64,000 bases of DNA from an uncultured Candidatus Saccharibacteria bacterium (GTDB lineage Bacteria; Patescibacteriota; Doudnabacteria; UBA920): NCBI GenBank assembly GCA_964521955.1, contig CAZFTX010000005.1, positions 804-64,803 on the forward strand. Direction: 5' to 3'. Below, piece by piece: positions 1 through 43,179 of the stretch. Position 1 is the first letter of the stretch. Each line of letters starts with the position of its first letter. The position numbers and the translations under genes are program-made. Below the pieces are notes generated by a model. It saw only the letters and a list, made by a program, of their open reading frames with translations. It was not told the origin of the DNA and made no database searches.

Positions 1-1456
1 AAAAATCATCGGGTTTATTTGCTGAAGTCTTGGCAAAGGCGGGCCAGCCTAAAGTTGAAAAAGTCCAAAGGCCAGAGCTAAACCAAGTATCTAGAGTATC
101 AGGATCTTGCTGCCAATCATTGTCTTTAGGAGTGTCTACTCCGACATATGTTTGACCGTTTTTATACCAAACAGGAATTCTGTGACCGTACCAAATTTGC
201 CTTGAAATACACCAGTCTCTAAGATTGTCTACCCAATGGAAATAGATTTTTTCAAAATGTTGAGGAATAATTTTAATCAAACCTTCCTGGACTGTGTGAC
301 GCATGAGTTGTTTTAAAGTCACCATGTCACCAGGATTAATACCGGGAATTTCCGAGTGTTTCATGGCAAATTCGCGGTTTACGTCTATAAACCACTGTTC
401 TTTTATTTGTGGTTCAATTATTCCGCCGCCGCGTGAGTTTGTGGCGATGCGGTGGGTATAGTTTTCATCAATTTTTTCAATTAAACCTTTGCTTTGAAGT
501 TTTTTTATAATTGCCGCCCGAGCTTTTTTAATGTGCTGGCCGGCGAATTCACCAGCAATAGGTAGGAGCACTCCGCGTTCGTCAATAATTTGTTCTTTGT
601 CTAAGCCGTGTCTTTGGGCAATTTCAAAGTCTATAGCATCATGCCATGGAGTAATGGTCATGGCTCCCGTTCCAAATTCCATGTCCACGCTTTCGTCTTT
701 GATAACTGTGGCAGTAATTTTACCGTTGATCCACTCAACTTCGATTTTTTGATTGTGTTCGTATTGTAAAAAGCGTGGATCTTTAGGATGCATAACTACG
801 TATTTGTCGCCGAACTTAGTTTCAGGGCGAGCCGTGGCAATGGTGAAAGGTCCATACTTTAAATAGTAGAAGGCAGATTTTTCTTCTTTCCATTCAATTT
901 CGTCGTCTGAAACTGTGGTTTTAAGTTTGGGATCCCAATTTACAATTCTAGCTCCGCGGTAAATTATTTTGTCTTCGTACATATGTTGAAAAGCCAAACG
1001 AACTGCCAGGGTTCTTTTTTCGTCCAAAGTATAAGCCTCTCTGCTCCAGTCGGCAGAAGCACCTAAGCGTTTGAGTTGGGTAAGTATTGTGTCATGACTT
1101 TTTTGGGCGAAATCTTCAACCATTTTCAAAAATTCTTCTCGAGAAAAGTCAAAGCGTGTTTTATTTTCTTTTTTGTAAAGTTCTGCTTCTACTTTTGACT
1201 GAGTGGCTATGGCAGCATGGTCAGTACCCGGTAGCCATAAGGCTTTTCGGCCTTGCATTCTGCGCCAACGAATTAAAATATCTTGAATGGTTGTACCTAA
1301 TGCATGGCCAATGTGAAGAGTGCCTGTAACATTTGGCGGCGGCATAATTATTGTGTAGGGCTCGCCATTTAGCTTGTCAGGATTAAAGTAACCTGAATTT
1401 TCCCAGGTTTTGTAAATTTCACTTTCTACTTTTGTGTGATCGTAGGCTTTTTCCAT
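1..1456 (-). CDS. valS: valyl-tRNA synthetase, N-terminal ~485 aa (gene continues beyond window start)
   Basis: Minus-strand frame is open from position 1 to an ATG at 1456. Its translation is MEKAYDHTKVESEIYKTWENSGYF...IIMPPPNVTGTLHIGHALGTTIQDILIRWRRMQG...TWFSSGLW, with the class I HIGH motif in the PPPNVTG context typical of ValRS. It is absent from the ORF track because it runs off the edge. Confidence 0.9.
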   Translation of the reverse strand, partial: MEKAYDHTKVESEIYKTWENSGYFNPDKLNGEPYTIIMPPPNVTGTLHIGHALGTTIQDILIRWRRMQGRKALWLPGTDHAAIATQSKVEAELYKKENKTRFDFSREEFLKMVEDFAQKSHDTILTQLKRLGASADWSREAYTLDEKRTLAVRLAFQHMYEDKIIYRGARIVNWDPKLKTTVSDDEIEWKEEKSAFYYLKYGPFTIATARPETKFGDKYVVMHPKDPRFLQYEHNQKIEVEWINGKITATVIKDESVDMEFGTGAMTITPWHDAIDFEIAQRHGLDKEQIIDERGVLLPIAGEFAGQHIKKARAAIIKKLQSKGLIEKIDENYTHRIATNSRGGGIIEPQIKEQWFIDVNREFAMKHSEIPGINPGDMVTLKQLMRHTVQEGLIKIIPQHFEKIYFHWVDNLRDWCISRQIWYGHRIPVWYKNGQTYVGVDTPKDNDWQQDPDTLDTWFSSGLWTFSTLGWPAFAKTSANKPDDF

Positions 1457-6434: not shown

Positions 6435-6509
6435 AGTATGACGCGGCGCTATCGTCTAATGGTTAGGACAAGTGGTTTTCATCCACTAAATCGGGGTTCG
6501 ATTCCCCGT
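6435..6509 (+). tRNA. tRNA-Glu (anticodon UUC), CCA encoded
   Basis: Cloverleaf by hand: acceptor GGCGCUA/UAGCGCU, anticodon stem AGUGG/CCACU with loop UUUUCAU (anticodon UUC), T-arm CGGGG-UUCGAUU-CCCCG, discriminator A and CCA. Confidence 0.85.
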
Positions 6510-6653
6510 AGCGCTACCAACAAAAGTTCCCGACCTTACGTCGGGACTTTTTGTTGGTATGCCGTGAGGTGGAATTCCCCGCCGAAGCGAAGCGTAGGTC
6601 CCGACTTTACGTCGGGGTAGCGCTACCAACAAAAGTTCCCGACCTTGTGTCGG
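6498..6653 (+). repeat. ~47 bp direct repeat of tRNA-Glu 3' end plus terminator hairpin (copies 6498..6545 and 6607..6653), att-site-like
   Basis: GTAGCGCTACCAACAAAAGTTCCCGACCTTACGTCGGGACTTTTTG is repeated with 2 substitutions (TAC to TGT in the loop). A third related hairpin (GGTCCCGACTTTACGTCGGGG) lies between the copies. Confidence 0.7.
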
Positions 6654-6755
6654 GACTTTTTGTATGATTATAATAAAGGTACCTGACACCTTTTCTTTTC
6701 CATTATTATAATAGCGGTCAATTTATTAAAGTGAACATTTAACAACTACGGTTTA

Positions 6756-10898: not shown

Positions 10899-12005
10899 AT
10901 GAATTTTTTTAAGGTTTTGTATAAATATGTTTTTAAGCCTGTGGCGTTTAGGTTTGACCCGGAGTTAGTTCATGATTTAGTTGTAAGTTTAGGTGTGCGT
11001 TTAGGTAAACATAAGCTTACGAAAAAGACGGTGAGCTGGCTTTTTAAATATTCTTCGCCAGTTTTACAGCAGACATTGTTAGGTATTTCTTTTCCAAACC
11101 CAATTGGCTTAGCCGCAGGGTTTGACAAAAACGCCCAGCTGATAGAAATTTTGCCCGAAGTGGGTTTTGGCTTTGCAGAGTTAGGTTCTGTTACTGGTGA
11201 ATTTTGTGTAGGTAATCCCAAACCTAGACTTTGGCGTTTGCCTAAGTCAAAATCTTTACTGGTATATTATGGTTTAAAGAATGACGGTGCGGAAAAAATT
11301 GCCGTAAGAATAAAAGAACAGCTTGCAAGTAAGCAAGCTAAAATTCCTTTTGGAATTAGCGTGGCTAAAACCAATTCGCCAAGTACAGTTAGTTTGGTTG
11401 GTGGAATAAATGATTACATTAAAGCTTTTCGCAGCTTTGTAGAAATTGGCAGTTTTACAACCGTGAACATAAGTTGTCCAAATGCTTTTGGAGGACAGCC
11501 TTTTACAGAACCTGATATGTTGGAAGCCTTGCTTTTAAAGCTTGAAGAAATTCCCACAACAAAACCTACTTTTGTGAAATTTTCACCGGACTTGGATTTT
11601 AAAAAAATTGACGAACTTTTGGAAGTAATTGGACGGCATAAAATTCAAGGTATAATTTGCTCCAATTTAACAAAGAACAGAAATAACAAAAATATTTTGG
11701 AAACCAGTCCGTCCCAGCATGGCGGGTTTAGCGGTAAAGTTGTGGAAAGTTTGGCAAATGAACTGGTGGCATACGTTTACAAAAAAACTAAAGGCAAATA
11801 TGTGGTAGTGGGGTGTGGTGGGGTATTTTCTGCCGAAGATGCTTATAAAAAAATTAGACTAGGTGCTTCTTTAATACAGTTAATTACAGGTATGGTTTAC
11901 GAAGGTCCTCAAGTGGTAGGGGAAATAAATGCCGGTTTGGTAAAACTTTTGTTGAGAGATGGTTTTAAAAATATTTCAGAAGCAGTGGGTGTAGACAGTA
12001 GGTAA
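10899..12005 (+). CDS. pyrD: dihydroorotate dehydrogenase (quinone-type)
   Basis: 368 aa; GLAAGFDKNAQ, FGFAELGSVT and the C-terminal TIM-barrel motif GCGGVFSAEDAYKKIRLGASLIQL. Confidence 0.85.
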   Translation: MNFFKVLYKYVFKPVAFRFDPELVHDLVVSLGVRLGKHKLTKKTVSWLFKYSSPVLQQTLLGISFPNPIGLAAGFDKNAQLIEILPEVGFGFAELGSVTGEFCVGNPKPRLWRLPKSKSLLVYYGLKNDGAEKIAVRIKEQLASKQAKIPFGISVAKTNSPSTVSLVGGINDYIKAFRSFVEIGSFTTVNISCPNAFGGQPFTEPDMLEALLLKLEEIPTTKPTFVKFSPDLDFKKIDELLEVIGRHKIQGIICSNLTKNRNNKNILETSPSQHGGFSGKVVESLANELVAYVYKKTKGKYVVVGCGGVFSAEDAYKKIRLGASLIQLITGMVYEGPQVVGEINAGLVKLLLRDGFKNISEAVGVDSR

Positions 12006-13017: not shown

Positions 13018-14073
13018 ATGAAAAATATTTTGAAATTAGTTGGTGTTGGAGGACTTTTAGCGATTTTGTTTTTTTCAACTCAAAGTTTTAGCCAAAATGT
13101 AAAACTTAATCCAATTTTACCTGGAGTTAAAAGTTCGGGAACAATAACAGACGAACAGCAAGGAATTTTAGCTGTCCGTAAAATTAAGCCTTCGGTTGTA
13201 AATATTGTGGGGGAAAAAACCGGACCTTTTGCCGAGAGTACTATTTTTGGTACCGGATTTGTTTATACTAGTGATGGTTATATTATTTCTAACAATCACG
13301 TGGTTTCGGATTCTGAGAAAAAATATTATGTAGTTTTTGCCGATGGTAGTGAGTATGATGCCAGGGTTGTGGGTTTGGACAAGTTTAACGACGTAGCATT
13401 AATTAAAATAGAAAAGAAAGGCCTTACACCAGCAGTTTTAGGCAACTCAGATATTTTAGAAACCGGACAAACTGTTTTTGCCGTTGGAAATTCTTTGGGT
13501 AAGTATCAAAATACAGTTTCAAAAGGTGTAGTTTCCGGTTTAGACAGGGCTTTGGAAGTTGGGACCAGTTATGACCCCAAGCCGAGAATGTTAAATTTAA
13601 TACAGACAGACGCAGCAATTAACCCGGGTAATTCCGGCGGGCCCTTAATTAACATGGCAGGGGAAGTAGTGGGTATGAATACGCTCATTGACCAAGAGGG
13701 TAGGGGCTTGGGTTTTGCAGTGCCAGTAACGATTATTAAACAGAGCGTTGAACAGCTTAAAGCTTTTGGTAAAGCTTCCCGAGCTTACATGGGAGTGCAA
13801 TATGTAACTGTTAATAAAAGCATTCAGGCTTTACGTAGCTTAAGCACAAGTGACGGAGCATTTATTTCTTTTGTTGCACCAAACGCGCCTGCGAGTTTAG
13901 CCGGAATACAGCCGGGCGACGTTATTGTTGAAATTAACAGAGAAAAACTTACACAGCAAAGAGAATTAGATACCATAGTTTCAAAGTTTAAAGCCGGGGA
14001 CCAAATACTTATAGCATTAATGCGGAGTACGGAGAAAATAGAAACAACAGTAATTTTAGTTGAATACAAATAG
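13018..14073 (+). CDS. htrA: trypsin-like serine protease HtrA/DegP family with PDZ domain
   Basis: 351 aa; signal peptide, catalytic His (SNNHVV), GNSGGPL serine motif and a C-terminal PDZ-like segment. Confidence 0.85.
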   Translation: MKNILKLVGVGGLLAILFFSTQSFSQNVKLNPILPGVKSSGTITDEQQGILAVRKIKPSVVNIVGEKTGPFAESTIFGTGFVYTSDGYIISNNHVVSDSEKKYYVVFADGSEYDARVVGLDKFNDVALIKIEKKGLTPAVLGNSDILETGQTVFAVGNSLGKYQNTVSKGVVSGLDRALEVGTSYDPKPRMLNLIQTDAAINPGNSGGPLINMAGEVVGMNTLIDQEGRGLGFAVPVTIIKQSVEQLKAFGKASRAYMGVQYVTVNKSIQALRSLSTSDGAFISFVAPNAPASLAGIQPGDVIVEINREKLTQQRELDTIVSKFKAGDQILIALMRSTEKIETTVILVEYK

Positions 14074-14081
14074 TAGAATTT

Positions 14082-14270
14082 ATGCACCGTAGTTTTAGTC
14101 ACGGGCAAAGCCCGATGTCAAAAAACTACTCTGACCAATTTTCACTAAGTGACCTCTTCGGGGCTTTGTTAAAATATTCCGGTTTTTCTCACCGTACTAT
14201 AGTACGCCTCGAAACATCCTCATATTTTGCCTCGAATTTGGTGCAATGCTTAAATTCTATTCGGGGTTTA
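14082..14270 (+). repeat. dispersed structured repeat element, copy A
   Basis: Near-identical to 19441..19630, with a shared core CTTTGACCAATTTTCACTAAGTGACC[T/C]CTTCGGGGCTTTGTTAAAATATTCCGGT... Hairpins are CGGGC-AAA-GCCCG and CGTACTA-TAGTACG. Confidence 0.6.
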
Positions 14271-14290
14271 TAAAATTATATTTAAAGAGA

Positions 14291-14324
14291 AAACCGGCGC
14301 ATCTGTAGCAGATGGCCGGTTTTC
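14291..14324. terminator. bidirectional intrinsic terminator
   Basis: AAAACCGGCGCAUCUG-UAG-CAGAUGGCCGGUUUU, a long palindromic hairpin flanked by A and T runs. Confidence 0.55.
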
Positions 14325-14375
14325 GTTTCAGGAGTCAGCGCGAGCAAATATGACTGAGTTTGTATGATGGCGAAA

Positions 14376-14648
14376 TTAGTGAAGCTCGCTGTCCGTTCCT
14401 GATTTGCTGGCCACAATAACTGCTAGAAGCAGTAAAGCGGCCGTGACTGTAACAATGGATGCATGTTCGACTACGCGAACAAGTTCAGTAGCTTGCGCTA
14501 CCAAAACTAGCATGCTCACTGCCCTGGAAGCTAAGGTTAGCCTTCCGGTTTTCTGTAGTACTTTGTGGTTAGTAGCCTTGGTGGCTTTAAAACTCACAAA
14601 CAGAATCCCGAAAGCCACAGCTCCCAAGAAAATCAGGAACAGGTTCAT
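14376..14648 (-). CDS. small membrane protein, GC-rich module
   Basis: 90 aa with 2-3 TM helices; roughly 50% GC. Confidence 0.4.
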   Translation of the reverse strand: MNLFLIFLGAVAFGILFVSFKATKATNHKVLQKTGRLTLASRAVSMLVLVAQATELVRVVEHASIVTVTAALLLLAVIVASKSGTDSELH

Positions 14649-14714
14649 ATGACTCCTTTCTTCGCGCTTTTGTGAGGCGCAAAGAGGTATGAGAACCCCC
14701 TGTTAATTGTAAAG

Positions 14715-14900
14715 TTCAGTATTTAGTACCGCTACTTTTAGGTCTGGCAAAGCCAGCCCCCAAAAGTAGCTTTGGCCAATTTCTTTGTTAAAATGCTTTC
14801 GTTGATTCTCACCGTAGATCCACTACGGCTCGAATCATCCGCGCATTTTGTCGCGAACTTGGCTCAATGCCTAAATCCTGAAAATACGTTCCGCTATTCG
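14715..14900 (+). repeat. dispersed structured repeat element, divergent copy C
   Basis: Shares CTGGC-AAA-GCCAG, CCAATTTC-TTTGTTAAAAT, CTCACCGTAG-ATCCA-CTACGG and CGAACTTGGCTCAATGCCTAA with copies A/B. It lacks the CACTAAGTGACCCCTTCGGGGC insert. Confidence 0.5.
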
Positions 14901-15012
14901 GCGGAAGAAGCGAGTCCCTTTAATCGACATCGTCAACGCGGGGGACCTTGCAGTTTAATTAAATTTCTATGGGTTGTCAAACGCCCGTTTTAAGTGTTAA
15001 AATCTATTTAAT

Positions 15013-15948
15013 ATGTCTAAACAAAATGTGAGAAAAGTTATTATTATTGGTAGTGGTCCGGCAGGTTTAACCGCTGCTCTTTATGCAGCTCGCGCAGAGT
15101 TAAAACCTTTAGTTTTAGCAGGGCTTAACCCGGGTGGACAGCTTATGCAAACTACAGAGGTGGAAAATTTTCCCGGTTTCCCTCAAGGAATTATGGGTCC
15201 TGACTTAATGCAAAATATGATTAAGCAGGTTGAAAGGTTTGGTACGGAAATTTTAGCGGAAAATGTTGTAAAAGTAGACTTTGTAAATAGGCCATTTACC
15301 GTAACAACTGAAAAAGGTGAGTACAAGTGTGAGTCTGTAATTATTGCTACAGGCGCTGAGGCAAACTGGTTAGGTTTGCCAAATGAACAAAAACTTCGCG
15401 GTAAAGGGGTTTCTGCTTGTGCTACATGTGACGGGTTTTTCTTTAAAGGTAAGGACTTGGCTGTTATTGGCGGAGGAGACTCTGCAATGGAAGAAGCAAT
15501 GTTTTTAACTAAGTTTGCAAACAAGGTTACCGTGGTGCACAGAAGACACGAATTTAAAGCTTCTAAAATCATGTTAACTAAAGCTAAAGCCAATTCTAAA
15601 ATAGATTTTGTAACTAATGTTTTTGTGGTAGACGTGCTTGGAGAAACTGCTGTCTCGGGTTTAAAAATAAAAGACAATGAAACAGGACAAGAAAGAGACC
15701 TAGCTGTTCAAGGTGTGTTTTTGGCTATTGGTCACACCCCTGCCAGCAAGATTTTTAAAGAAGTGGGTTTGGAAACTGATGAGCGGGGTTATATGAAAGT
15801 TACTAACTATACCCATACTAGTATTCCGGGTGTTTTTGTTGCGGGCGACGTTTACGACTCTCGGTATCGTCAGGCGGTTTCAGCTGCCGGTTTGGGGTGC
15901 ATGGCTGCCTTAGACGCGGAAAAGTACCTGGCTTCACTGGAAGGATAA
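15013..15948 (+). CDS. trxB: thioredoxin-disulfide reductase
   Basis: 311 aa; GSGPAGLTAALYAARA FAD motif, CATCDG redox-active disulfide, GGGDSAMEEA NADPH motif. Confidence 0.9.
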   Translation: MSKQNVRKVIIIGSGPAGLTAALYAARAELKPLVLAGLNPGGQLMQTTEVENFPGFPQGIMGPDLMQNMIKQVERFGTEILAENVVKVDFVNRPFTVTTEKGEYKCESVIIATGAEANWLGLPNEQKLRGKGVSACATCDGFFFKGKDLAVIGGGDSAMEEAMFLTKFANKVTVVHRRHEFKASKIMLTKAKANSKIDFVTNVFVVDVLGETAVSGLKIKDNETGQERDLAVQGVFLAIGHTPASKIFKEVGLETDERGYMKVTNYTHTSIPGVFVAGDVYDSRYRQAVSAAGLGCMAALDAEKYLASLEG

Positions 15949-15950
15949 AA

Positions 15951-16400
15951 ATGAATAAAGAATTAGGAATTAAAATAACCGGTAAGGTTGTTAAGGGCAT
16001 GGGGTATGGAAAAATTTTAGGTTTTCCAACGGCAAATTTAGACCGCAGGGGTTACGTTTTAAAAAAATTAAAAGTTAAGCTTGGCATCTGGTCTGGTGAA
16101 GCAGTAATTTTACCACCCCGCCGCAAGCGGCCCTCCCCTCCTAAATTAGGAGGGGAAAGAAGGAAGGTCTATCAGGCAGCGATAGTTATTGGTCCTTTGG
16201 ACAAAAACAACCTGCCTAAAATAGAAGCGCATTTAATAGGGTTTAAAGGCAATTTATACGGAAAAAAAGTTGAATTGGTTTTAAAAAAATATTTACGCCC
16301 GTTTAAGAAGTTTAAAAATGTTGAAGATTTAAAAAAACAAATTATGTTAGATATAAAACAAATTAACCCCCGTTCGACCTGGTTTCGTCCGGGCAGGTAA
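15951..16400 (+). CDS. riboflavin kinase domain protein (RibF C-terminal domain-like)
   Basis: Start chosen at MNKELGIK (AAGGA RBS), 149 aa. The GFPTANL motif is typical of riboflavin kinase, and a basic insert PPRRKRPSPPKLGGERRK is present. Confidence 0.6.
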   Translation: MNKELGIKITGKVVKGMGYGKILGFPTANLDRRGYVLKKLKVKLGIWSGEAVILPPRRKRPSPPKLGGERRKVYQAAIVIGPLDKNNLPKIEAHLIGFKGNLYGKKVELVLKKYLRPFKKFKNVEDLKKQIMLDIKQINPRSTWFRPGR

Positions 16401-16431
16401 TTATTCTAAAAAGAATTAAGAAATAAAATAT

Positions 16432-17355
16432 ATGAAGCGCTTGGGACCTTACCTTATTTTTTTAGCCGCAATGCTTTGGGCAACTGACGCCCCCTTTAGA
16501 GTTCATTTAACCAAAGACTTAAACAGCAGCTTTATTGTTTTAGTGGAGCATTTTTTTGACGTTTTGGTAGTCTTGCCTATTTTACTATTTAATTTAAAAA
16601 CTCTTAAAACTTTTAAACTTAAGCAGTGGTTGGCGGTTTTGTTTATTGCTGTTGGCGGTTCGGCCCTAGCCAGCATAGCTTTTACCCAAAGTTTTAGTTT
16701 TGTAAATCCTTCGGTAGCAATTCTGTTGCAGAAACTTCAGCCTTTAATTGCAATTGGTTTAGCTTCTACTTTGTTGGGTGAGAGAGCAGGGAAACATTTT
16801 TGGATTTTTGCAGGCCTTGCTATGGCTGGGGCTTACCTAATTTCGTTTCCGGGACTTAAGCCTGAAATTTTTCCGGGCGAACAGTTTAACCCCAACCTTT
16901 GGGGTGTAGGCTTAGCTTTAGTTGCAGCGGTTTTGTGGGGAGCCTCTACGGTTTTGGGTCGTTACATGCTTTCAAAAGTGGATTTTAAAGTTATGACAAC
17001 TTTAAGGTTTTCCTTAGCTTTTGTGTTTTTGTTGCTACTTAACCTTTACAACAAAACCATTCCAGAACTTTCGAGCGTCTCAGGTAAGGACTGGTTTTAT
17101 CTATTTATAATTGCCGTAACTTCAGGTGTGGTTTCTTTATTTATCTATTACAAAGGTTTGGCTTTTACAAAAGCTTCCATTGCCACTTTAGCAGAACTTG
17201 GCTTTCCCATGGCCGCAGTTTTAGTGAACTGGATATTTATTCCGGGCTCAGCTTTGGTTAAAGTTCAAATTTTAGGCATGGCAATTTTACTTTTGGCAGT
17301 ATTCAACTTAAGTCGGGAAAACAACAACACCCCGGATGAACTGAGATTACCATAA
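16432..17355 (+). CDS. EamA/DMT family transporter
   Basis: 307 aa, ~10 TM, two EamA-like halves. Confidence 0.6.
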   Translation: MKRLGPYLIFLAAMLWATDAPFRVHLTKDLNSSFIVLVEHFFDVLVVLPILLFNLKTLKTFKLKQWLAVLFIAVGGSALASIAFTQSFSFVNPSVAILLQKLQPLIAIGLASTLLGERAGKHFWIFAGLAMAGAYLISFPGLKPEIFPGEQFNPNLWGVGLALVAAVLWGASTVLGRYMLSKVDFKVMTTLRFSLAFVFLLLLNLYNKTIPELSSVSGKDWFYLFIIAVTSGVVSLFIYYKGLAFTKASIATLAELGFPMAAVLVNWIFIPGSALVKVQILGMAILLLAVFNLSRENNNTPDELRLP

Positions 17356-17521
17356 AAATTAATTTACATGAGATTTCTGTGAATTAATGATTTAGTGATT
17401 GAGAAATCCAAAAATCAATGAATCAATATAATCAGAAAATTATATTGGTGGGTTTGACAATGACCGTAAAAGAGGGATAAAATGTAATGTTGATACACTT
17501 TTAAACATTAAATTTACAAAT

Positions 17522-19441
17522 ATGAAATATATAAAAACAGGCCTTTTATTTGGACTTTTTGTAGTAGTTGGTGTTTTAAGTCAAACTGATCAGGCACAAG
17601 CGCAATATTATGGGGGATACGATTATAACTATAACTATTACAATAACTATAATTACGGTAGAACCCCCAGTTTAAGCGTTGTTCGTGAAAACAATTTTGA
17701 CAGTTATAACGTTACGGTTTCAAATGCAGACATTAACTCAAGAGTGGTTTTGTATGCCCGTTTGCAAGGTAGTACTTTATGGTCCACTACAATTGACCCA
17801 ATTGGTTATACTGACCAGTCTGGTTATTTAAGAACGACTGTTTCAAATTTAGGTTTAAATAACAACAATGTAGAATTTAAGATTTCGGTAAATGGTACAG
17901 AGTCAACGGTTGTAAGTTCAGGCAATTACGGTGGGTGTAATTATAATTGCGGAAGCCCAACAGGTTTGTCTTTAAGCCAAAATACTTTAACTCTTGCTGT
18001 TGGTCAGACACAAACAGTTACAATCAATAATAACTATAATTACAACTATAATAATAACTTTTATATTGCTTCCAATTCAAACTCTTCAGTAGTTTCAGCA
18101 AATGTGTCCGGGAGCCAAATAAATTTGTATGGGTTAACAAATGGTAACAGCACAATTTCTGTGTGTGTCAGTGGTAATATTTATTTAAACCAAGGCTGTG
18201 CCACTTTGTATGTTACTGTTTCGGGTGGTGTTGTAGTTGGAAATATTACTTTCAGTCAAAATAATATAAATTTAAGCGTCAATCAAAATACTAACGTAAG
18301 CATTTACCATAGTGTTTTCGGTGATGGTGCGTTTTATATATCTTCAAATTCCAACTATCAAGTTGTAGAAGCAAGTATTTCCGGGAGTACTCTATATTTA
18401 ACCGGTAAGTCGCAAGGTTCTGCTACTTTGAGTGTGTGTAAATATAACACTGTTGCTTGCGGACAACTTTATGTCATGGTCAATAGTAGTGGTAGCGGAA
18501 ATTATGGTTATTTAACTTTTTCACCAAGTAACCCTACTGTTTCAGTAGGTCAGACGCAAACGGTGACAATCTATAATAACAATAACTATTACAATAACAG
18601 CTATTATATTTCTAATAACACCAGCCAAGCAGCCGTCACCGCTTCGGTTTCCGGCAATATTTTGAGCCTTTACGGTTTAAATGCTGGCAATGCTAATATT
18701 ACAGTTTGTCAAACTTCAGGGAATATGAATTGTTCAGTCATTTACGTTACAGTGACAGGCAGTGGACAAGGCTACGGCAGTTTGTATTTTTCAACTACTT
18801 ACTTACCTCAACCGTCAATTGGACAGTATTACAGTCAGCAGTTAGTTGTAAGTGGTGGCAATTCTCCTTATAGCTATACTTTAACCAGTGGTAGTTTGCC
18901 TCCAGGTTTGTATCTTTCAACTTCAGGACAAATATACGGTACACCTCAAAGTAACGTTTTTTCCACTTTCTCAGTCAGGGTTTCAGACATTTACGGACGT
19001 AGTGCTACTCAAACTTTACTTCTAAATCCAATAGGAGGCAGTGGTGTTTTGGGTAGTAGTACATATCGTAACGGACAGTTAATTTCTGAAAATGGTACGG
19101 TCTATATAGTTTATAAAAACACTAAAACCGGATTTATTTCCGCGTATGTATTTAACGGTTTGGGCTATAGTTTCAACCAAGTGGTAAATGTTGGTTATAC
19201 AGGTTTGTTGGACAGTGGTTATACAGTTTCTTCTAAAGACGCTTCTCATCCTTGGGGCGCTTGGATTAAAAGCGGACACACTGTTTACTTTGTCCATGAA
19301 CTTGGACTTATTCCCGTTCCATCTTATGACGTATTTTTAAACAACAATGGTCAGGATAACTTGGTTGTTTCTGCAAATTCTTACGACTTTGTAAGACCAA
19401 TGCTTTCTCCTATGGTGTATAACGATTCTCGACTTAGGTAA
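17522..19441 (+). CDS. secreted surface protein with tandem Ig-like (Big_2-type) modules and Asn/Tyr-rich linkers
   Basis: 639 aa; signal peptide. A module of the form LSQNTLTLAVGQTQTVTINNN...YIASNSNSSVVSANVSGSQINLYGLTNGNSTISVC is repeated four times, with a C-terminal putative-Ig segment SGGNSPYSYTLTSGSLPPGLYLSTSGQIYGTP. Confidence 0.6.
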   Translation: MKYIKTGLLFGLFVVVGVLSQTDQAQAQYYGGYDYNYNYYNNYNYGRTPSLSVVRENNFDSYNVTVSNADINSRVVLYARLQGSTLWSTTIDPIGYTDQSGYLRTTVSNLGLNNNNVEFKISVNGTESTVVSSGNYGGCNYNCGSPTGLSLSQNTLTLAVGQTQTVTINNNYNYNYNNNFYIASNSNSSVVSANVSGSQINLYGLTNGNSTISVCVSGNIYLNQGCATLYVTVSGGVVVGNITFSQNNINLSVNQNTNVSIYHSVFGDGAFYISSNSNYQVVEASISGSTLYLTGKSQGSATLSVCKYNTVACGQLYVMVNSSGSGNYGYLTFSPSNPTVSVGQTQTVTIYNNNNYYNNSYYISNNTSQAAVTASVSGNILSLYGLNAGNANITVCQTSGNMNCSVIYVTVTGSGQGYGSLYFSTTYLPQPSIGQYYSQQLVVSGGNSPYSYTLTSGSLPPGLYLSTSGQIYGTPQSNVFSTFSVRVSDIYGRSATQTLLLNPIGGSGVLGSSTYRNGQLISENGTVYIVYKNTKTGFISAYVFNGLGYSFNQVVNVGYTGLLDSGYTVSSKDASHPWGAWIKSGHTVYFVHELGLIPVPSYDVFLNNNGQDNLVVSANSYDFVRPMLSPMVYNDSRLR

Positions 19442-19630
19442 AACTTAAGCATCACTATTTTTCTGGCCTGGCAGAGCCAGAGCCTAAAAAATAGCTTTGA
19501 CCAATTTTCACTAAGTGACCCCTTCGGGGCTTTGTTAAAATATTCCGGTCTTTCTCACCGTACTAAAGTACGCCTCAAAATATCCTCATATTTTGCCTCG
19601 AACTTGGTTCAATGCTTAAGCTTTACGTGT
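19441..19630 (+). repeat. dispersed structured repeat element, copy B
   Basis: Starts at the stop codon of the surface-protein gene. Hairpins are CTGGC-AGA-GCCAG and CGTACT-AA-AGTACG, with a ~90% identical core to copy A. Confidence 0.6.
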
Positions 19631-19692
19631 TAATGTAAATGAGTTAAAACCCCACCCTGTACAGGGTGGGGCGGGATTGTTAAAATATATAA

Positions 19693-20493
19693 ATGCAAAT
19701 AAAACTGGTTCAGTTAAACATTTGGGCAGGGGAGCTTTTAGACAATTCAACAGCTTGGCTTAAAGAACAAGATCCGGACATTCTGTGTTTACAAGAAGTA
19801 TACAACGAAACCAATGAAAGTTTTCCGGAAAAGTTTCGTCTTCTTTCAAAAGTACAGAAAGAATTAGGAATGCCTTTTGTAAGTTTTGCGCCGGCCATGG
19901 AATATGTAACTTTAGAAGGCAAGTTTGTTCAGGGTAATGCCATACTTTCAAAATTTCCCATCGCTTCTTTTAAGGCGCATTTTTTTGACGTGCCTTTTAA
20001 AGAATTTAAAAAAACTGACAACCCTGAGTATACACCCAGAAACGTACAAGAAGCACAAATAGACTTAAAGGGGAAAGTCTTAAATGTCTTTAATTTACAC
20101 GGTATTTGGGGTAAGCACGGGGACGACACAGAAAGGCGCTTGTCCATGGTAGAAAAGATTTTAATGCTTATGAAAGACAAAACACCAAGTGTTTTGTGTG
20201 GGGATTTTAACGTTAACGAAAGAGTTTTGCTAAATCCGGAAAGTTTTGAAACTGAAGGATATAGGTGGAAAAAGACCCAAGCCATTCAAAATTTAGAAAA
20301 ACATTTGGTTAATGTTTTTAGAGAAGAAAGAACCAGTTCTTTTAATTTATTGCATAAGGCTACCAACACAGGTTACGCTTTCGCGGTGGTGGATATGGTT
20401 TTTGTAAGCCCGGATTTAAAAGTTGTGTCCCACGCATGTCCCGATGTAAATGTCTCGGACCATTTACCCACAGTGGTTATATTTGAAATATAA
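19693..20493 (+). CDS. endonuclease/exonuclease/phosphatase (EEP) family protein
   Basis: 266 aa; DPDILCLQEV near the N-terminus, SDHLP near the C-terminus. Confidence 0.75.
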   Translation: MQIKLVQLNIWAGELLDNSTAWLKEQDPDILCLQEVYNETNESFPEKFRLLSKVQKELGMPFVSFAPAMEYVTLEGKFVQGNAILSKFPIASFKAHFFDVPFKEFKKTDNPEYTPRNVQEAQIDLKGKVLNVFNLHGIWGKHGDDTERRLSMVEKILMLMKDKTPSVLCGDFNVNERVLLNPESFETEGYRWKKTQAIQNLEKHLVNVFREERTSSFNLLHKATNTGYAFAVVDMVFVSPDLKVVSHACPDVNVSDHLPTVVIFEI

Positions 20494-32406: not shown

Positions 32407-32576
32407 AAATTGAAAGTTTTTTACTTGGAATTCTAACTGGTGAATTATAACTAAAATTACCGGTTTAAGTCAAGAAGCAAGACAGAATTAACCTAATCTC
32501 TAATTGTCCTAATTATTCAAAAAAATGCAAAGAAAGTTTTTAGGTTAATTAGTAATTAGGTCAATTAGAATAATTT

Positions 32577-34511
32577 TTAAAGGTTTTGTTTAATAGTGAG
32601 AGCGAGTTTTTCTCCCACCACTGCTTTTAGTTCTTCTAAAGAAGCCTTTTTTATTTCAGCAACTGTTCCAAATTTGGTTTTAAGTATCTTTTTAGTTTTT
32701 GGTCCTACACCTGGTAAGGTATCCAGGGCAGAAGTATAAGCTTGTTTGCTTCTTAAGTTTCTGTGGAAAGTTATTCCAAACCTGTGAGCTTCGTCCCTAA
32801 GTCTTTGTAGAAGCTGTAGGGCCGGTTGGTCGTGTGAAAGTATAATGGGTTGTTTTTTCCCCGGAACAAAAATTTCTTCCAAGCGTTTTGCCAGTCCTAT
32901 AACTTTTAACTTTTCACTTTCTTGCCCTGAGCTTGTTGAATGGGCAACTTTCAACTTGCTTAATGCGGCTAATGCCGCATTAAGCTGACCCTTGCCTCCG
33001 TCTACTACTATTAAATCCGGCAATGGCCACTTACTAAGCTGGTCAGGCTGATTAGCTGATCTGCTGATCAGGCTGTGTGTGAGTCTTCGAGTAATAATTT
33101 CACGCATCATACTAAAGTCGTCAGGAGTCTCTTTAATTTGGACTTTAAATTTTCTATATTCTGACTTTGCTGCTAGTCCGTTTTTAAAAACCACCATACT
33201 GGCAACCGGATTAGTACCTTGGGTGTTGGAAATATCAAAACATTCAATTCTTTCGGGAATTTTTTTAAGACCTAAGACCTCTTGAAGTTGTTTTAAAGCG
33301 CGGCCAATTTTGTCTAAGTGGCCTGCTCTTTCTGTTAACCAGTTTTTCAAATGTTCTTTAGCATTAAGAGCGCTGGTTTTTAAAAGACTTAATGCTTTAC
33401 CTTTTTTAGGTACAGAAATTTTAACACTCTTACCAAAACGTGCTTTTAACAAATTTTTAACAACTTCGACATTGCTAACTGGTAGATTTAAATAAATTTC
33501 TTTAGGAATGTCGCTAGTTTCTAAGTAGTATTGTTCTAAAAAGGTTTCTAGAATCACTTGTTCTTTGTTACTTTCATTTTCTTTAGTTTGCTTTGAGTCA
33601 TAAACAAAATTTTCTTTGCCTACAAGCTTACCTTCTCTGACTTTGAGTAAGTTTACACAGTAAAAACCTTCGTCGGAGCTAAAGGAGGCAAGGTCCCAAT
33701 TAACTTTATTTGCAAAAATTACGCTTTGCTTTTCGCTTAAAAGTTTTAGGCTTAAAAATTGGTTTCTAAGTCTTGCTGCGGTTTCAAAACGTTTTTTTTT
33801 GGCGGCGCTGAGCATTTCTTTTTTTAAGTCATGCATGGCGCCGGCAATGTTACCGGAGAGAAATTGTTTAATTCTTTCTAAGTGAGTTTTATATTCGTCT
33901 AAGCTAATTTTGCCGAAGCATACACCAGGACAACGGTGGAGGTGGTAGTAAAAACAAGGTTTTTGGGAAACTTTTTCAGCGCTACAGTAAGGGAAGATTC
34001 TTCTTACGGTTTGGAGAGTTTCTCGGATTTTCAGTGCAGATGTGTACGGTCCAAAATAATCAGACTTGTTGTTTGTTATTTTTGATCTGGAATTGGCTTT
34101 GTATTTGATATCTGCCTGCCCGCCGAAGCCTTGGCGAAGGAGGGGTTCTTGGATTCTTCTTGTTATGTTGATTTGAGGGATTTGGGTGGAGTAGTCTAAA
34201 ACAATAAACGCGTAAGATTTGTCGTCTTTAAGTTCAATGTTGTATTTAGGCTTGTGGTTTTGGATTAGGGTTCTTTCTAAATACAAACTTTCCAATTCGG
34301 TGTGGACTACAGTGTAGTCTAAGTCAGTTGCCTCGTTAATTAAAAAAGGAATTTGAACCCTGGTGTCAGTACCCTTAAAATACTGGTTAACTCGGTTTTT
34401 AAGGTTTTTAGCTTTGCCAATATAAATAACCTCACCGGATTTGTTTTTAAAAAAATACACTCCGGGCTGGGTGGGTATAGACTTTAGTTTTAGAGTTATA
34501 AGGTTTTTCAA
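32577..34511 (-). CDS. uvrC: excinuclease ABC subunit C
   Basis: 644 aa; GIY-YIG N-terminus (GVYFFKNKSGEVIYIGKAKNLKNRVNQYF), UvrBC, endonuclease V-like and HhH domains. It contains an ATCAG-periodic insert (SANQPDQLSKW). Confidence 0.9.
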   Translation of the reverse strand: MKNLITLKLKSIPTQPGVYFFKNKSGEVIYIGKAKNLKNRVNQYFKGTDTRVQIPFLINEATDLDYTVVHTELESLYLERTLIQNHKPKYNIELKDDKSYAFIVLDYSTQIPQINITRRIQEPLLRQGFGGQADIKYKANSRSKITNNKSDYFGPYTSALKIRETLQTVRRIFPYCSAEKVSQKPCFYYHLHRCPGVCFGKISLDEYKTHLERIKQFLSGNIAGAMHDLKKEMLSAAKKKRFETAARLRNQFLSLKLLSEKQSVIFANKVNWDLASFSSDEGFYCVNLLKVREGKLVGKENFVYDSKQTKENESNKEQVILETFLEQYYLETSDIPKEIYLNLPVSNVEVVKNLLKARFGKSVKISVPKKGKALSLLKTSALNAKEHLKNWLTERAGHLDKIGRALKQLQEVLGLKKIPERIECFDISNTQGTNPVASMVVFKNGLAAKSEYRKFKVQIKETPDDFSMMREIITRRLTHSLISRSANQPDQLSKWPLPDLIVVDGGKGQLNAALAALSKLKVAHSTSSGQESEKLKVIGLAKRLEEIFVPGKKQPIILSHDQPALQLLQRLRDEAHRFGITFHRNLRSKQAYTSALDTLPGVGPKTKKILKTKFGTVAEIKKASLEELKAVVGEKLALTIKQNL

Positions 34512-35072: not shown

Positions 35073-35420
35073 GAGCTTGGCAAAACAGAAATCTATTTCC
35101 AGCAGTAATCCGGAGCCCCAGCGGGGCGGTTCGGATTAGCCGGGTGAGCAGCGCGCTACGAGCGCGATGTTTACCCGGTTTAATTTTGTCTTGTTTCTAA
35201 GTATTTCAATTATTTCTCTTATTTCTGGAGCGGGATAAACCTATTTTCCTTATAAGCTAAGAGCTATTGTCTATAAGCTGTCTTAGGCTCTTGCTCAACC
35301 CGTATTTTTGTGGTAGACTTTTTATCAGTTTGTTTTTTCTACAGAAACAAACATTACTTTACAGATATCTGCAGATTTTTATTTGAGTTTAGTTTTTTTA
35401 GAATAATTAGAACAATTTTT

Positions 35421-38261
35421 ATGCGTGATGTTATCTCCATTCGCGGTGCGCGAATGCACAATTTAAAAAATATTAACGTAGACTTGCCTCGTAACAAACT
35501 TATTGTTATGACCGGACTTTCCGGGAGTGGCAAGTCTTCTTTGGCTTTTGACACTATTTATGCAGAAGGTCAAAGGCGCTATGTAGAAAGCTTGTCCGCT
35601 TACGCCAGGCAGTTTATTGGGCTTATGGACAAGCCCGACGTGGACAAGATAGAAGGTTTGTCTCCGGCTATTTCCATTGACCAAAAGTCTGCTTCTCACA
35701 ACCCGCGTTCAACTGTGGGCACGGTTACGGAAATTTACGACTACATGCGTCTTTTGTGGGCGCGTATTGGCGTACCTCACTGTCCGGTTTGCGGCAAAAA
35801 AATTCACGGTCAAACTTTGCAGGCTATGACCGACCAGCTTTTGGCTTTGCCTTCAGGTACAAAATTGGTTTTGCTTGCCCCGTTTATTAAAGATCAAAAA
35901 GGGGAGCATAAACATATCTTTGAACAAATAAAAAAGGCCGGTTTTGCCCGTGTTCGAGTTGACGGGACTGTTATGGATCTTTTTGAAGCCATGGGTCTTA
36001 GTTTAGACAAACAAAAAAAGCATAGTATAGAAGTCGTGGTTGACCGGGTGACAGTTTCCACTGAAGAAAAGGGGCGTTTGGCGGAAAGTTTGGAAAAGGC
36101 GGCTGACTTGGGCGACGGTTTGGTTTTAGTTTCCAAAACAGACAGTAAGGACGCTGACATTGTGCTTTCCCAAAAATATGCCTGTCCGGACGGACATGTG
36201 CAGTTAGCCGAACTTGATCCTAGGGATTTTTCTTTTAACAGTCCTCACGGTGCTTGTCCTGAGTGTAAAGGTTTGGGTACCAAGCTTACAGTTGAGCCTG
36301 ACTTGGTTATACCTAACCCAAAACTGACTTTGGCTGAAGGCGCGGTCAGGCCTTGGAGTAAAACCACTTCTAGGCAAAGCTGGTACATGAAAATTTTAGA
36401 GTCTGTAGCCAGGGAGTTTGGCTTTTCTTTAAATACGCCTGTAAAAGATTTACCGAAAAAATATTTAGATATTGTGCTTTATGGTACCGGAGATAAAAAA
36501 GTACACATGGTTATTGAGTCCACCACCAGTAATTCTAAAATAGACACTTATACTCCCTTTGAAGGCGTACTTTCTTATTTAGAGCGAAGATATTTGGAAA
36601 CCGACTCAGACTACATGCGCAGCGAAATAGAAAACTATATGCGGATTCGTCCTTGTCCGGTGTGTAAAGGTAAAAGGCTGAAAGCGGAAGTTTTGGCTGT
36701 GACTGTTGGTCAAAAGGGCATAGTGGACGTTTCGGGTATGACCATAGAATCTGCCAGCAAATATTTTACCGAACTTTTAAAACAGCTTTCTCAAAAAGAC
36801 CAGGCCATAGCTAAGCAGGTGTTAAAAGAAATTAACGCCAGGCTTTCTTTTTTGCTGAACGTTGGCCTTTCTTATCTTTCTTTGGACCGTACCGCCGACA
36901 CGCTTTCCGGTGGGGAAGCTCAGCGCATACGCTTGGCCACGCAAATCGGCAGTGGACTGACTGGCGTTTTGTATATATTAGACGAACCTTCTATTGGGTT
37001 GCACCAACGCGACAATGGCAGGCTGCTTAAAACTTTAAAAGATTTAAGAGACTTAGGGAATACGGTTATAGTAGTAGAGCATGACGAAGAAACTATTCGT
37101 GAAGCTGATTGGGTCGTAGACATTGGCCCCGGTGCGGGCAAGCACGGTGGGGAATTGGTTGGCGAAGGTACCCCAAAAGATATTGAAAAAAATAACAAGA
37201 GTTTTACTGGATTGTATTTGTCAGGGAAAGAAAGTATAGAAGTACCTAAGCGCAGAAAACCGGGTAACGGCAAAAAACTTTCCATAATCGGTGCTGAAGA
37301 ATTTAACTTAAAAAATGTAAACGTAGAAATTCCTTTAGGGAAGTTCGTTTGTGTTACCGGTGTTTCCGGCAGCGGCAAGTCCACTTTGTTAAACGATATT
37401 TTAGCACGGGCTTTAAACCGGCATTTTTGGGGAACCAAAGAAGAACCCGGCAAGCACAAGAAAATTTTAGGCTTGGAACATTTAGACAAAATTATTAACA
37501 TTGACCAAAGCCCAATTGGTAGAACGCCCAGAAGTAACCCTGCTACTTACACAGGATTGTTTACACCTATTCGCGAACTGTTTGCCGAAACTAGGGAAGC
37601 CCGCATGCGCGGTTACAAAGCCGGCAGATTTAGTTTTAACGTAAAAGGCGGGCGTTGTGAAAAGTGCGCCGGTGACGGGGTTATTCAAGTGGAAATGAAC
37701 TTCTTACCTGACGTGTACATTACTTGTGAAGAATGTAAAGGTAAGCGTTATAACCGCGAAGCTTTGGAAATACATTATAAAGAAAAAACCATTGCCGATG
37801 TTTTGGAAATGACGGTGGATGAAGCTAAAGTTTTTTTTGCCAGTATTCCCCAACTTTATAAAAAAGTGGAAGTGCTTTCCCAAGTGGGTTTGGGCTATAT
37901 GCACTTAGGTCAAAATGCCACCACACTTTCCGGGGGTGAAGCTCAGCGTATAAAGTTAGCCACTGAACTGTCACGTGCTTCTACCGGCAGAACTTTGTAT
38001 TTGTTGGACGAGCCTACTACGGGTTTACATTTTGCGGACGTAAAAAGGCTGATTCACGTACTTAATAAGCTTGTAGAAAAAGGCAACACTGTTGTAGTTA
38101 TTGAGCATAACTTAGATATGATTAAAACTGCAGACTGGATAGTAGACATGGGTCCCGAAGGCGGGGATAAGGGTGGTACTTTGGTAGCCGCCGGAACGCC
38201 GGAAGACGTGGCAAAAGTTAAGTCGAGTTATACGGGACAGTATCTTAAAAAAATATTATAG
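35421..38261 (+). CDS. uvrA: excinuclease ABC subunit A
   Basis: Start at [45 protein letters not shown]. The ORF-track N-terminal extension from 35310 was rejected. Two ABC ATPase modules with Walker [10 protein letters not shown] and the zinc-finger insertions are present. Confidence 0.95.
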
Positions 38262-38330
38262 AATTATTCTAAGTACGCTAATTACTCTAATTATTCTAAA
38301 ATAGATTTAGGACAATTAGAACAATAAAAA

Positions 38331-38617: not shown

Positions 38618-38746
38618 CTCCTAGTGTCGGCTGGAACAACGCCATTTTTTAGGGCTTGCGATGAAACATGCAAGACCTTTTGACCCACAAGAAAATGAGT
38701 CCCTCTTTATGATTGATTTCGTATTCTACTACTTTTAGGGGTGGGT

Positions 38747-38868
38747 GTCAACCCAGTAATACAACATTTGATATTTAATAAAAAAATAGTGTTATGAAAT
38801 ATTAAGCTTTGTATAAGCATGTGTTTTTGTATAAATATAAAATCAAATGTTGATATACTGGGTCAACC
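38747..38868. repeat. 122 bp palindromic (MITE-like) element with ~25-30 bp terminal inverted repeats, copy 1
   Basis: GTCAACCCAGTAATACAACATTTGAT...ATCAAATGTTGATATACTGGGTCAACC. It is 97% identical to 39797..39917 and lies ~130 bp upstream of the minus-strand PEP-CTERM gene start. Confidence 0.7.
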
Positions 38869-38965
38869 TTCTTATGTTAAAAGAAAAGAGCGAACCGTCA
38901 CGTGACTGCGGTTCGCTCTTTTTGCGTTGTTAGGCGCTCTTGTTACTCCCGCATGGAGCGGAAGT

Positions 38966-39658
38966 CTAGAGCTTGTTGTTGCGTCGACGTCGGTGGAGGA
39001 ACAGCAGGCCTCCGAGACCTGCGCCCATGAGTACGTACGTGCCGGGCTCCGGAACTTCGCCCGGACGTTCATCGCCAAACAGGTACTGAGTGAATGTCAC
39101 AGAGTTGAGCCTTGTTTGACCGTTGCTGCGTACGCGAAGAAGCGTTTGTTCCCATGCTCCGAAAGCGCCGACGTTGTCGCGTAGAAACGTTCCCGCCGCG
39201 TAAGTGTTGTCGTACCAGTGATCCACGGATCCGTCGCCGTGAAGCAGGGTTTCCACCGTATGTGGTGTTCCGGCAACGCGCGGAGTGAGGTCAAAGAACA
39301 CAAACGTTTCAATCGCCGGTGCGTTGCTGTAGCGTTCGTAGCCGAGCAGAGAAGCGCCGAACAAGGATCCGTTTTGTGTACGCGGGTTGAGACCGTTGCT
39401 CAAGTTCTGCTGGAACATGTCGATGTTGGCGTTGGGATTGTCTTCGTAGCTCACCGACGCATAGGTTGAGCCGCTGTTGATGAAGATGCCGACCTCGGTG
39501 TTGGAATTCTGGGTGATGGTGATTGTGCCGTCGCCGTTGTCGGTAAACGTGCCGTCGCCGTATGTGGTCCACGTAAGACCACCGAAGTCAATGGTCGCGG
39601 CGTTGGCCGAGAGGGCCGCAACGGTCGCGAGAATCAAGAGAACGAGAAATTGCTTCAT
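38966..39658 (-). CDS. PEP-CTERM domain secreted protein
   Basis: 230 aa; signal peptide, Gly/Thr/Asn-rich body, C-terminal EVPEPGTYVLMGAGLGGLLFLHRRRRNNKL; GGAGG RBS; GC-rich codons. Confidence 0.8.
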   Translation of the reverse strand: MKQFLVLLILATVAALSANAATIDFGGLTWTTYGDGTFTDNGDGTITITQNSNTEVGIFINSGSTYASVSYEDNPNANIDMFQQNLSNGLNPRTQNGSLFGASLLGYERYSNAPAIETFVFFDLTPRVAGTPHTVETLLHGDGSVDHWYDNTYAAGTFLRDNVGAFGAWEQTLLRVRSNGQTRLNSVTFTQYLFGDERPGEVPEPGTYVLMGAGLGGLLFLHRRRRNNKL

Positions 39659-39796
39659 GACACCTCCGTGATGTGTCGGTTAGCACTACGCCTATTTTAG
39701 CCTTGCCTAAAAAATCCAAAGCAAGACTTTTTGCCTAACTAGTTATTAGGCCTCCTTATATAACGACTTATTAGTTTATAGTATTTCGGGCATGGG

Positions 39797-39917
39797 GTCA
39801 ACCCAGTAATACAACATTTGATATTTAATAAAAAATAGCGTTGTGAAATATTAAGCTTTGTATAAGTATGTGTTTTTGTATAAATATAAAATCAAATGTT
39901 GATATACTGGGTCAACC
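39797..39917. repeat. 122 bp palindromic (MITE-like) element, copy 2
   Basis: Near-identical to 38747..38868; ~140 bp upstream of the start of the 38966..39658 gene. Confidence 0.7.
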
Positions 39918-41971: not shown

Positions 41972-42146
41972 TTATATATTACGATGTTTGGTGCTACAGG
42001 GGTCGATTTTTTGATCCCTGTTTGTACGTTGTGTGTACACACTACGGTAGTTGGACAGCACTGCGCTGTCACAACTTACCGTCAACCGCGGTTCTTTAGA
42101 CCCCACCTTGAAGAGGGTGGGACAAATCCACGGAGGATTGAGTACC

Positions 42147-43139: not shown

Positions 43140-43179
43140 ATTCAACACCATTTTTTGACTATTTTTCCTTTACCTCGAC

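Follow-up and report, generated by a model that had tools for sequence, protein, structure and literature searches.

Copies of the repeat in the window

The 64-kb window analysed here, the whole stretch of contig CAZFTX010000005.1 under study, whose named protein relatives lie near Doudnabacteria, contains a dispersed non-coding repeat that accompanies htrA, trxB, dnaJ and the gene of a 639-aa Big_2 surface protein. An earlier reading of the letters alone (hereafter the sequence-only reading) had claimed four related loci, and all four exist: an nhmmer profile built from copies A, B and C recovered these three full copies at E-values of 1e-47 to 1e-67 and a fragment beside dnaJ, copy D, at an E-value of 0.0016, with no other credible matches in the window. 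The four loci are homologous, all in + orientation, and fall in families D3 and D9 of the repeat listing of the window (copy D being D9).

Copy A (14074-14259), which includes TA dinucleotides at 14074-14075 and 14258-14259, begins immediately 3' of the htrA stop codon TAG (14071-14073). Copy B (19439-19625) carries TA at 19439-19440 and 19624-19625, and the TAA stop codon of the surface protein gene consists of this left TA plus the first A of the element. Copy C (14715-14882) lies between a divergent gene for a 90-aa membrane protein (14376-14648, minus strand) and the trxB promoter (14974-15003), so that all three full copies are found within 5.5 kb. Copy D (61353-61394) is an internally deleted derivative of 42 nt, compared with about 130–195 bp for full copies, and the dnaJ stop codon TAA (61358-61360) sits within its 5' arm. 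The proposal that three copies start at or near stop codons was correct, with A directly following the htrA TAG and B and D overlapping the upstream stops. The shared motifs quoted for the family were likewise present, except that their exact match was broken by one mismatch each in A (TTGGTGCAATGC) and D (CAATTC). A 63-aa open reading frame (ORF) at 14082-14273 was open in copy A only; the other copies contained stops in essentially all six frames, and a coding role for the element was therefore rejected.

Copies beyond the window

Pattern scans and synteny walks revealed four further distinct copies in other Patescibacteria contigs, giving seven distinct full copies in total. The L017 copy (99-231, minus strand) lies 3' of yidC, the L019 copy (915-1103, + strand) lies 3' of secY and is the same copy as in L048/L049, the L022 copy (143-324, minus strand) lies between two co-oriented ORFs, and the L028 copy (11565-11739, + strand) occupies the same spacer between the small gene and trxB as copy C. 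The named protein relatives place L017 near Azambacteria/Parcubacteria and L019 near Yanofskybacteria, which are Patescibacteria like the relatives of the window. The L017 and L019 copies were found with a pattern requiring TTTGTTAAAAT and CTCACCGTA, and the L022 copy with only TCACCGTA plus TACG, so the conservation of those motifs in these three copies is partly by construction; the L028 copy, found independently of patterns, lacks the first motif TTTGTTAAAAT.

The scan of genome contigs gave 20 loci with 2 real copies and the metagenome scan gave 5 loci with 1 real copy, while three pattern scans of viral contigs gave no real copies. No blastn match to the element was obtained in phages and plasmids, and no copies were found in about 110 kb of DNA from related lineages. 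A covariance-model match at 52362-52412 of the window proved to be an ordinary terminator and was discarded as a false positive. The family is probably larger than the copies seen here.

Core identity was 68–83% between most copies of different lineages and 52–64% for L019. The HtrA proteins of the lineages with high core identity were less than 60% identical, which suggests horizontal spread.

Secondary structure and covariation

In all eight copies, D included, the termini of the element pair with each other over 10–16 bp to form a closing helix, P1; the terminal inverted repeats measure 11–13 bp, with a consensus of about GACTTAnGCA ... TGCnTAAGTC. This helix is GAATTTATGCA/TGCTTAAATTC in copy A, TTCAG-T-ATTTAG/CTAAAT-C-CTGAA in copy C, and AAGCTTAAGAA/TTCTTAAACTT in copy D, where it surrounds only the 3' strand of the core (GCGCCCCGAACTTGGCTCAA). 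P2, a 43–60-nt hairpin on the 5' side (14089-14130 in copy A), is present in six of the seven full copies, L017 lacking it; where present it always folds, even though its sequence in L019, in L022 and in the remaining copies has almost nothing in common. The rest of the element is a long irregular hairpin in which P3 leads through a largely paired junction to P4 and P5, and these through the conserved internal loop CUCAC/GCUC to P6; the P3–P6 interior as a whole forms an imperfect palindrome. An insert of 22 nt bearing two mini-hairpins (CACTAAGTG and CCTCTTCGGGG) lies at about 14142-14165 in copy A and is common to copy B but missing from copy C; a cUUCGg tetraloop lies within it, copy A showing a U.G pair there. 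Single copies folded at z-scores of -4.6 to -7.6.

Covariation was scored on a model-based alignment of the seven full copies with 37 pairs, 500 shuffles and slid-partner controls. Standard pairs made up 94.2% of the cells, compared with 26–44% when the 3' partners were slid by 1–3 columns; 18 of the 37 pairs showed double compensatory changes, and none of the 500 shuffles reached the observed pairing, pair count or covariation score. The two compensatory changes from which conservation of structure had been argued were both correct: CGGGC/GCCCG to CTGGC/GCCAG lies in the inner stem of P2, and CGTAC/GTACG to CCGTAG/CTACGG lies in P6. Covariation extended beyond these two changes to the P1 termini, the outer part of P2, where one position reads G-C in A, U-A in B and C-G in C, and P4, which is inverted in L028 (UAAAAU/AUUUUG to UAUUUU/AAAAUG). 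Within P1 and P2, at least five double compensatory changes separate copy A from copy B. The secondary structure is conserved beyond reasonable doubt, and the lack of covariation that the sequence-only reading had named as grounds for abandoning it did not materialise, covariation being strong in the seven-copy alignment.

Rfam 15 gave no match at gathering thresholds over the window and, for the region 13900-19900, no match overlapping any copy at E-values up to 10; its families (6S, HEARO and other omega RNAs, Y RNA-like, riboswitches) were rejected for want of a covariance-model match. An intrinsic terminator was rejected as the identity of the element, as P1 is AT-rich and is followed by no consistent U-run; separate terminators lie 35–110 nt downstream of copy A and of the L019 copy. 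An origin of P1 by insertion into a pre-existing terminator hairpin was rejected on its AT-richness, its family-wide consensus and the presence of these separate terminators. The motif TTTGTTAAAAT matches the local extended -10 consensus TGTTAAAAT of the trxB and xth promoters, but a promoter role was rejected as the cause of its conservation because L028 reads CGTTATTTT with compensating AAAA on the partner strand.

The P2 of the L019 copy (935-978, equal to 11276-11319 in L048) was observed to be a perfect terminator-like hairpin, with an A-run, CCAGAAGCCCC...GGGGCTTTTCTGG, and a T-run. This module may double as the terminator of the ribosomal-protein/secY operon.

Flanking dinucleotides, stop codons and mosaic copies

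In four of the eight copies (A, B, L017 and L022), each flank has a TA dinucleotide positioned exactly 8 nt beyond the conserved GCA/TGC. The flanks of L019 (TA/TG), L028 (CA/TG) and C (TC/TG) are at most one substitution per side away from TA/TA, and those of copy D are TT/AA, unlike TA/TA. The left TA and the first purine of the element together form the upstream stop codon in B, L017 and L019. The secY stop codon is TAG at the filled site and TAA in both relatives with an empty site, and stop-like triplets also stand on the right flank of L017 (TAA, its left stop being TAG) and of L019 (TGA), as expected if the element had entered the TA of the original stop codon. Excision under a target-duplication model fits L017 and L019 and is awkward for B. 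The C-termini of HtrA (EYK before the stop) and of the surface protein (SRLx before the stop) coincide with the ends of their homologues.

The copies are modular and mosaic, as seen in the loss of P2 from L017, the insert of A and B, and the deleted copy D. The 3' domains of A and B were about 93% identical, whereas the part comprising the 5' arm of P1 and P2 was only about 55–60% identical, P2 by itself about 57%, and the P2 of copy B resembled that of copy C. The two arms of P1 covary, which a fixed transposase site would not require.

Empty sites in relatives

The element varied in presence between related genomes. In L048/L049 it lies directly downstream of secY, the filled site reading TAC TAG-[element]-TGA, whereas in L050 and L051 (SecY 88–90% identical) TAC TAA is followed by unrelated DNA and the site is empty. 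Similarly, the element lies downstream of yidC in L017, whereas L045, L046 and L047 (YidC 80–88% identical) lack it, their yidC overlapping or abutting the next gene or preceding unrelated DNA. These filled and empty sites were compared at 80–90% protein identity, which is above strain level, and the relatives are too diverged beyond the stop codon for exact alignment of the empty sites.

A block of htrA, the small gene, trxB and further genes as far as efp is syntenic in six lineages. The spacer between the small gene and trxB holds a copy in the window and in L028 only, at different points (67 nt and 27 nt, respectively, from the ATG of the small gene), and none in L027, L035, L036 and L040. 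No copy was found after htrA or after the surface protein gene in the other lineages.

A probable mobile repeat at stop codons

On balance, the observations favour a mobile repeat over a dedicated RNA gene. We consider it somewhat more probable than all other accounts together (roughly 0.55) that the copies represent a new structured repeat family of Patescibacteria resembling miniature inverted-repeat transposable elements (MITEs), whose copies insert on or next to stop codons and become part of 3' untranslated regions (UTRs). The element is short (copies of 42–186 nt), non-coding and multicopy, has terminal inverted repeats, and shows insertion polymorphism, being present in L017 and L048/L049 and absent at the corresponding sites of L045, L046, L047, L050 and L051. 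Of the two readings offered from the sequence only, a 3'-UTR or small-RNA family and a mobile element, the former was right about the fold; the latter fits better in view of the empty sites, the patchy distribution, the TA flanks, the mosaic structure and the deleted copy. The two had been set against each other on the premise that covariation excludes a MITE. This premise does not hold, because bcr1 of Bacillus cereus is mobile and transcribed and also shows compensatory changes (PMC3184786). More generally, MITEs have terminal inverted repeats, target duplications and long stem-loops at the RNA level, and ERIC-type repeats carry 5'-TA-3' at both termini (PMC3184786).

Under the mobile-repeat reading, a small non-autonomous element would land at or next to the TA of stop codons, presumably moved by a transposase acting in trans, with TA as the putative target-site duplication. 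The left TA and the terminal G or A of the element would then rebuild the stop codon, so that the upstream protein keeps its length. Where intergenic space is nearly absent, stop codons would be among the few places where an insertion does no harm. An inserted copy would be transcribed within the 3' UTR of the upstream gene or an intercistronic region and would fold as a long RNA rod. Selection for folding could have either of two causes: spread may depend on a folded DNA or RNA form, or an insert that fails to fold may damage the host mRNA.

Several observations weigh against this reading. A Pfam scan of the approximately 60 ORFs of the window identified no transposase, integrase or reverse transcriptase, and a parent insertion sequence with matching ends was likewise not detected. 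As TA is self-complementary, the flanks may be no more than an extension of P1, with no need for target duplication, and the CA...TG of L028 preserves pairing while losing the direct repeat. Excising copy B predicts a surface protein 4 aa longer than its four homologues, unless the right TAC is a decayed stop. The uniform orientation of the six copies that follow genes is not predicted by a cut-and-paste MITE alone. Long-range compensatory changes in the young pair A/B, together with the conserved asymmetric internal loops, suggest selection on the folded form beyond the termini. Finally, the sample of seven full copies is small, and part of the motif conservation within it reflects the search patterns.

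Alternative readings and the strand of a putative RNA

A cellular structured RNA, taking both strands together, is a serious but less probable account. Evidence on the strand of any functional RNA is conflicting or weak, with folding energies and wobble positions leaning towards the minus strand and gene context towards the plus strand; the plus-strand RNA assumed in the sequence-only reading is therefore not established. Each of the six copies downstream of a gene points the same way as that gene, five of them starting no more than 3 nt from the stop codon. The L019/L048 copy is bounded by the secY stop codon on one side and the intrinsic terminator of the operon on the other, and the L022 copy by two co-oriented ORFs, so plus-strand transcription is close to certain at these places. 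The RNAalifold consensus energy was -38.5 for the minus strand and -25.7 for the plus strand (-43.2 and -31.1, respectively, without P2), and the 3' domain was more stable on the minus strand in seven of seven copies; after correction for base composition, the z-scores of the two strands were almost equal. The column pairs 17-202, 142-166 and 145-163 are C.A or A.C on the plus strand in some copies and Watson-Crick in others, mismatches that become G.U only on the minus strand, where 142-166 is always a standard pair (C-G, U.G or U-A). On the minus strand, the invariant CUCAC/GCUC loop forms a tandem G.A/A.G motif, and the pair beside it reads G.U in five copies and A-U in the other two. Over all candidate pairs, however, 27 wobble cells were plus-only and 28 minus-only, a symmetry expected of a DNA palindrome drifting by transitions.

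A plus-strand cis-acting RNA is rather unlikely; it would be a module of the 3' UTR or of an intercistronic region, located at the stop codon and spread by duplication without transposition. Such a module might block 3'-to-5' decay, bind a protein or couple its folding to translation termination, in which case the terminating ribosome would cover the 5' arm of P1. The strong covariation in all helices, including the long-range P1 and P3, the conserved internal loops, the cUUCGg tetraloop of the A/B insert with its U.G pair in A, and the orientation and near-certain transcription described above are all consistent with it, as is the skew of the upstream genes to secretion and proteostasis (htrA, the surface protein gene, dnaJ, yidC and secY). 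However, the element is missing from the corresponding genes of close relatives and is thus dispensable to every gene it accompanies. Furthermore, C and the L028 copy follow no plus-strand gene and sit upstream of the trxB promoter, helix positions alternate between C.A/A.C mismatches and Watson-Crick pairs on this strand, and Rfam offers no match.

An extended form of this idea, also unlikely, would make the element an unknown class of structured RNA found across several Patescibacteria lineages. Its closing helix would begin where genes concerned with secretion and protein quality control (htrA, secY, yidC, dnaJ and the surface protein gene) end in a stop codon, its folding would be gated by the terminating ribosome, and its mobility would be secondary or only apparent. 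If true, such a class might, for example, be a sensor or effector linking translation of these mRNAs to decay, localisation or read-through.

A minus-strand RNA appears improbable, whether as an independent small RNA or, in the case of C and L028, as a 5' leader of the 90-aa membrane protein gene. Minus-strand promoters are located about 95 nt upstream of C (TTGACA-17-TAAACT) and of the L028 copy (TTGACA-17-TATGAT), the Shine-Dalgarno sequence of the small gene follows the element by 27–67 nt in both, and hairpins resembling terminators, with T-runs on the minus strand, come before A, B and C; the lower consensus energy, the stabler 3' domain, the tandem G.A/A.G motif and the pair 142-166 point the same way. 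Nevertheless, transcription through A, B, D, L017 and L019 would enter the 3' end of a convergent ORF and meet neither a terminator nor a gene to regulate, the promoter in L022 would have to lie inside the downstream ORF, and neither the composition-corrected z-scores nor the wobble counts distinguish the strands.

A single-stranded-DNA hairpin element moved by an HUH/Y1 enzyme (REP/RAYT or an IS200/IS605 "PATE"), whose covariation would reflect DNA hairpins recognised by shape, is highly improbable: the conserved structure with variable sequence, the placement of all four window copies on one strand and the equal frequency of G.T-type and A.C-type mismatches fit it, but the ends pair mutually and do not form separate subterminal hairpins, neither a conserved 4–5-nt target left of the element nor a conserved GTAG/CGTC tag is present, L017 lacks one of the two hairpins, and the window ORFs scanned include no Y1 transposase.

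Other features of the window

Two hairpins adjoining the repeat but outside it were read from the sequence: a bidirectional intrinsic terminator (AAAACCGGCGCATCTGTAGCAGATGGCCGGTTTTC, 14293-14325, both strands) between copy A and the convergent 90-aa gene, and a GC-rich hairpin (CCCCACCCTGTACAGGGTGGGG, 19650-19672, minus strand) next to copy B, with a T-run on the minus strand only. The trxB promoter, TTGTCA-18-TGTTAAAAT (14937-15003), has its -35 box in common with the divergent minus-strand promoter of the 90-aa gene (TTGACA-17-TAAACT). This arrangement and a nearby GCGGGGGACC-like motif recur in L028 (11780-11850) and L027 (11815-11885).

Arrays of a 9-nt periodic motif (TTAGAAYAA / TTAGGTAAA, e.g., AATTAGAACAATTAGGTAAATTAGAATAATT) occupy many intergenic regions in both orientations; the repeat listing places them at 32485-32590, 35388-35417, 38245-38306, 41653-41724, 43770-43832, 45200-45254, 45623-45676, 47208-47268 and 56422-56531. 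One possible role is as operator or UP-like arrays for a global regulator. A TAATTAACCTAATT pair resembling this motif is present upstream of trxB in L027. An identical 33-nt palindrome (AACCACTATGATACTGTCCAGTATCATAGTGGT) at two distant gene ends (43178-43210 and 53572-53604) constitutes a second, smaller repeated hairpin.

A 47-nt stretch (6508-6554), consisting of the 3' end of a tRNA-Glu gene (6445-6519) and a downstream hairpin, has a second copy 109 nt further on (6617-6663) with 96% identity, which looks like an att-type scar or a small duplication. The window also encodes a sortase and three PEP-CTERM proteins whose C-terminal coding segments are nearly identical (ORFs 38966-39658 on the minus strand and 42051-42854, 50325-50993 and 52417-53001 on the plus strand). 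A direct repeat of about 200 nt with 90–93% identity surrounds a PEP-CTERM gene; the repeated stretches listed for this region are 38734-38887 / 39784-39936 and 39015-39055 / 42756-42796.

Implications

Patescibacteria, of the candidate phyla radiation (CPR), have tiny, tightly packed genomes that are usually described as poor in mobile DNA, and we found no description in the literature of MITE-like repeats or RNA motifs of this sort in CPR. The element is most likely an ERIC/Correia/bcr1-like repeat that is new for Patescibacteria. A repeat that passes between lineages and settles at stop codons shows where compact genomes still accept insertions, and it could serve as a marker for strain typing and for tracing horizontal transfer. 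Long RNA rods at the 3' ends of essential mRNAs, among them those of secY, yidC, htrA and dnaJ, could alter the stability of these transcripts. For the discovery of RNA motifs, the family is a caution that a mobile palindrome can yield very clean covariation. Should a cellular RNA prove to be the right account instead, the family would represent a novel class of RNA linked to translation termination.

Comparison with known systems

Comparison with known structured RNAs and DNA elements led to the rejection of several candidates. The 6S RNA was rejected because the P3–P4 region is mostly paired (UUC/GAA, G-C), with a loop of about 3x3 and no large bubble, and three copies in 5.5 kb would also be atypical. 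A retron msr-msd RNA was rejected on its flanking genes (htrA, trxB, the surface protein gene, xth, dnaJ, yidC and secY) and the lack of a reverse transcriptase domain in the window. An integron attC site was rejected because the termini CTTAnGC...GCnTAAG are of opposite polarity to RYYYAAC/GTTRRRY and the context is one of housekeeping operons. For REP/RAYT or PATE elements, rejection rested on a P6 reading GTAG in C but GTAC in A and B, on the pairing of the ends and on the differing left flanks.

The REP/BIME sequences of E. coli resemble the Patescibacteria element in being repeated hairpins in 3' UTRs and intercistronic regions. REP/BIME hairpins stabilise the upstream mRNA, and REPs within about 15 nt of a stop codon reportedly interfere with terminating ribosomes (Liang, Rudd and Deutscher in 2015). 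However, REPs are GC-rich single hairpins of 20–40 bp with a GTAG/CGTC tag and RAYT partners, whereas the Patescibacteria element is 130–195 bp long, AT-rich and multi-helix. Rickettsia palindromic elements are selfish sequences of about 100–150 bp, tolerated at gene ends in a reduced genome of a host-dependent bacterium; they often lie in frame inside ORFs and are translated, whereas the Patescibacteria copies lie outside ORFs and are non-coding.

The closest analogues appear to be ERIC, Correia, RUP and bcr1 of B. cereus. Like the present element, bcr1 (about 155 bp) is transcribed and occupies positions that are not conserved between related strains, but it is flanked by a 5-bp direct repeat, whereas only TA flanks the Patescibacteria element, and sequence and hosts are unrelated. 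ERIC and Correia/NEMIS are imperfect palindromes of about 105–160 bp in intergenic or 3'-of-gene positions, co-transcribed with formation of a long RNA stem-loop, and they vary strongly in copy number between related genomes. The Patescibacteria element shares with them the imperfect palindrome, the terminal inverted repeats, the TA ends and the intergenic or 3'-of-gene placement; it differs in having no sequence similarity to them, in its host phylum, and in lying flush with stop codons without a known cognate transposase. In contrast to ERIC, which occurs in both orientations and forms a simple rod, the Patescibacteria element is uniformly oriented relative to the upstream gene and carries the side hairpin P2, which makes it a three-way structure.

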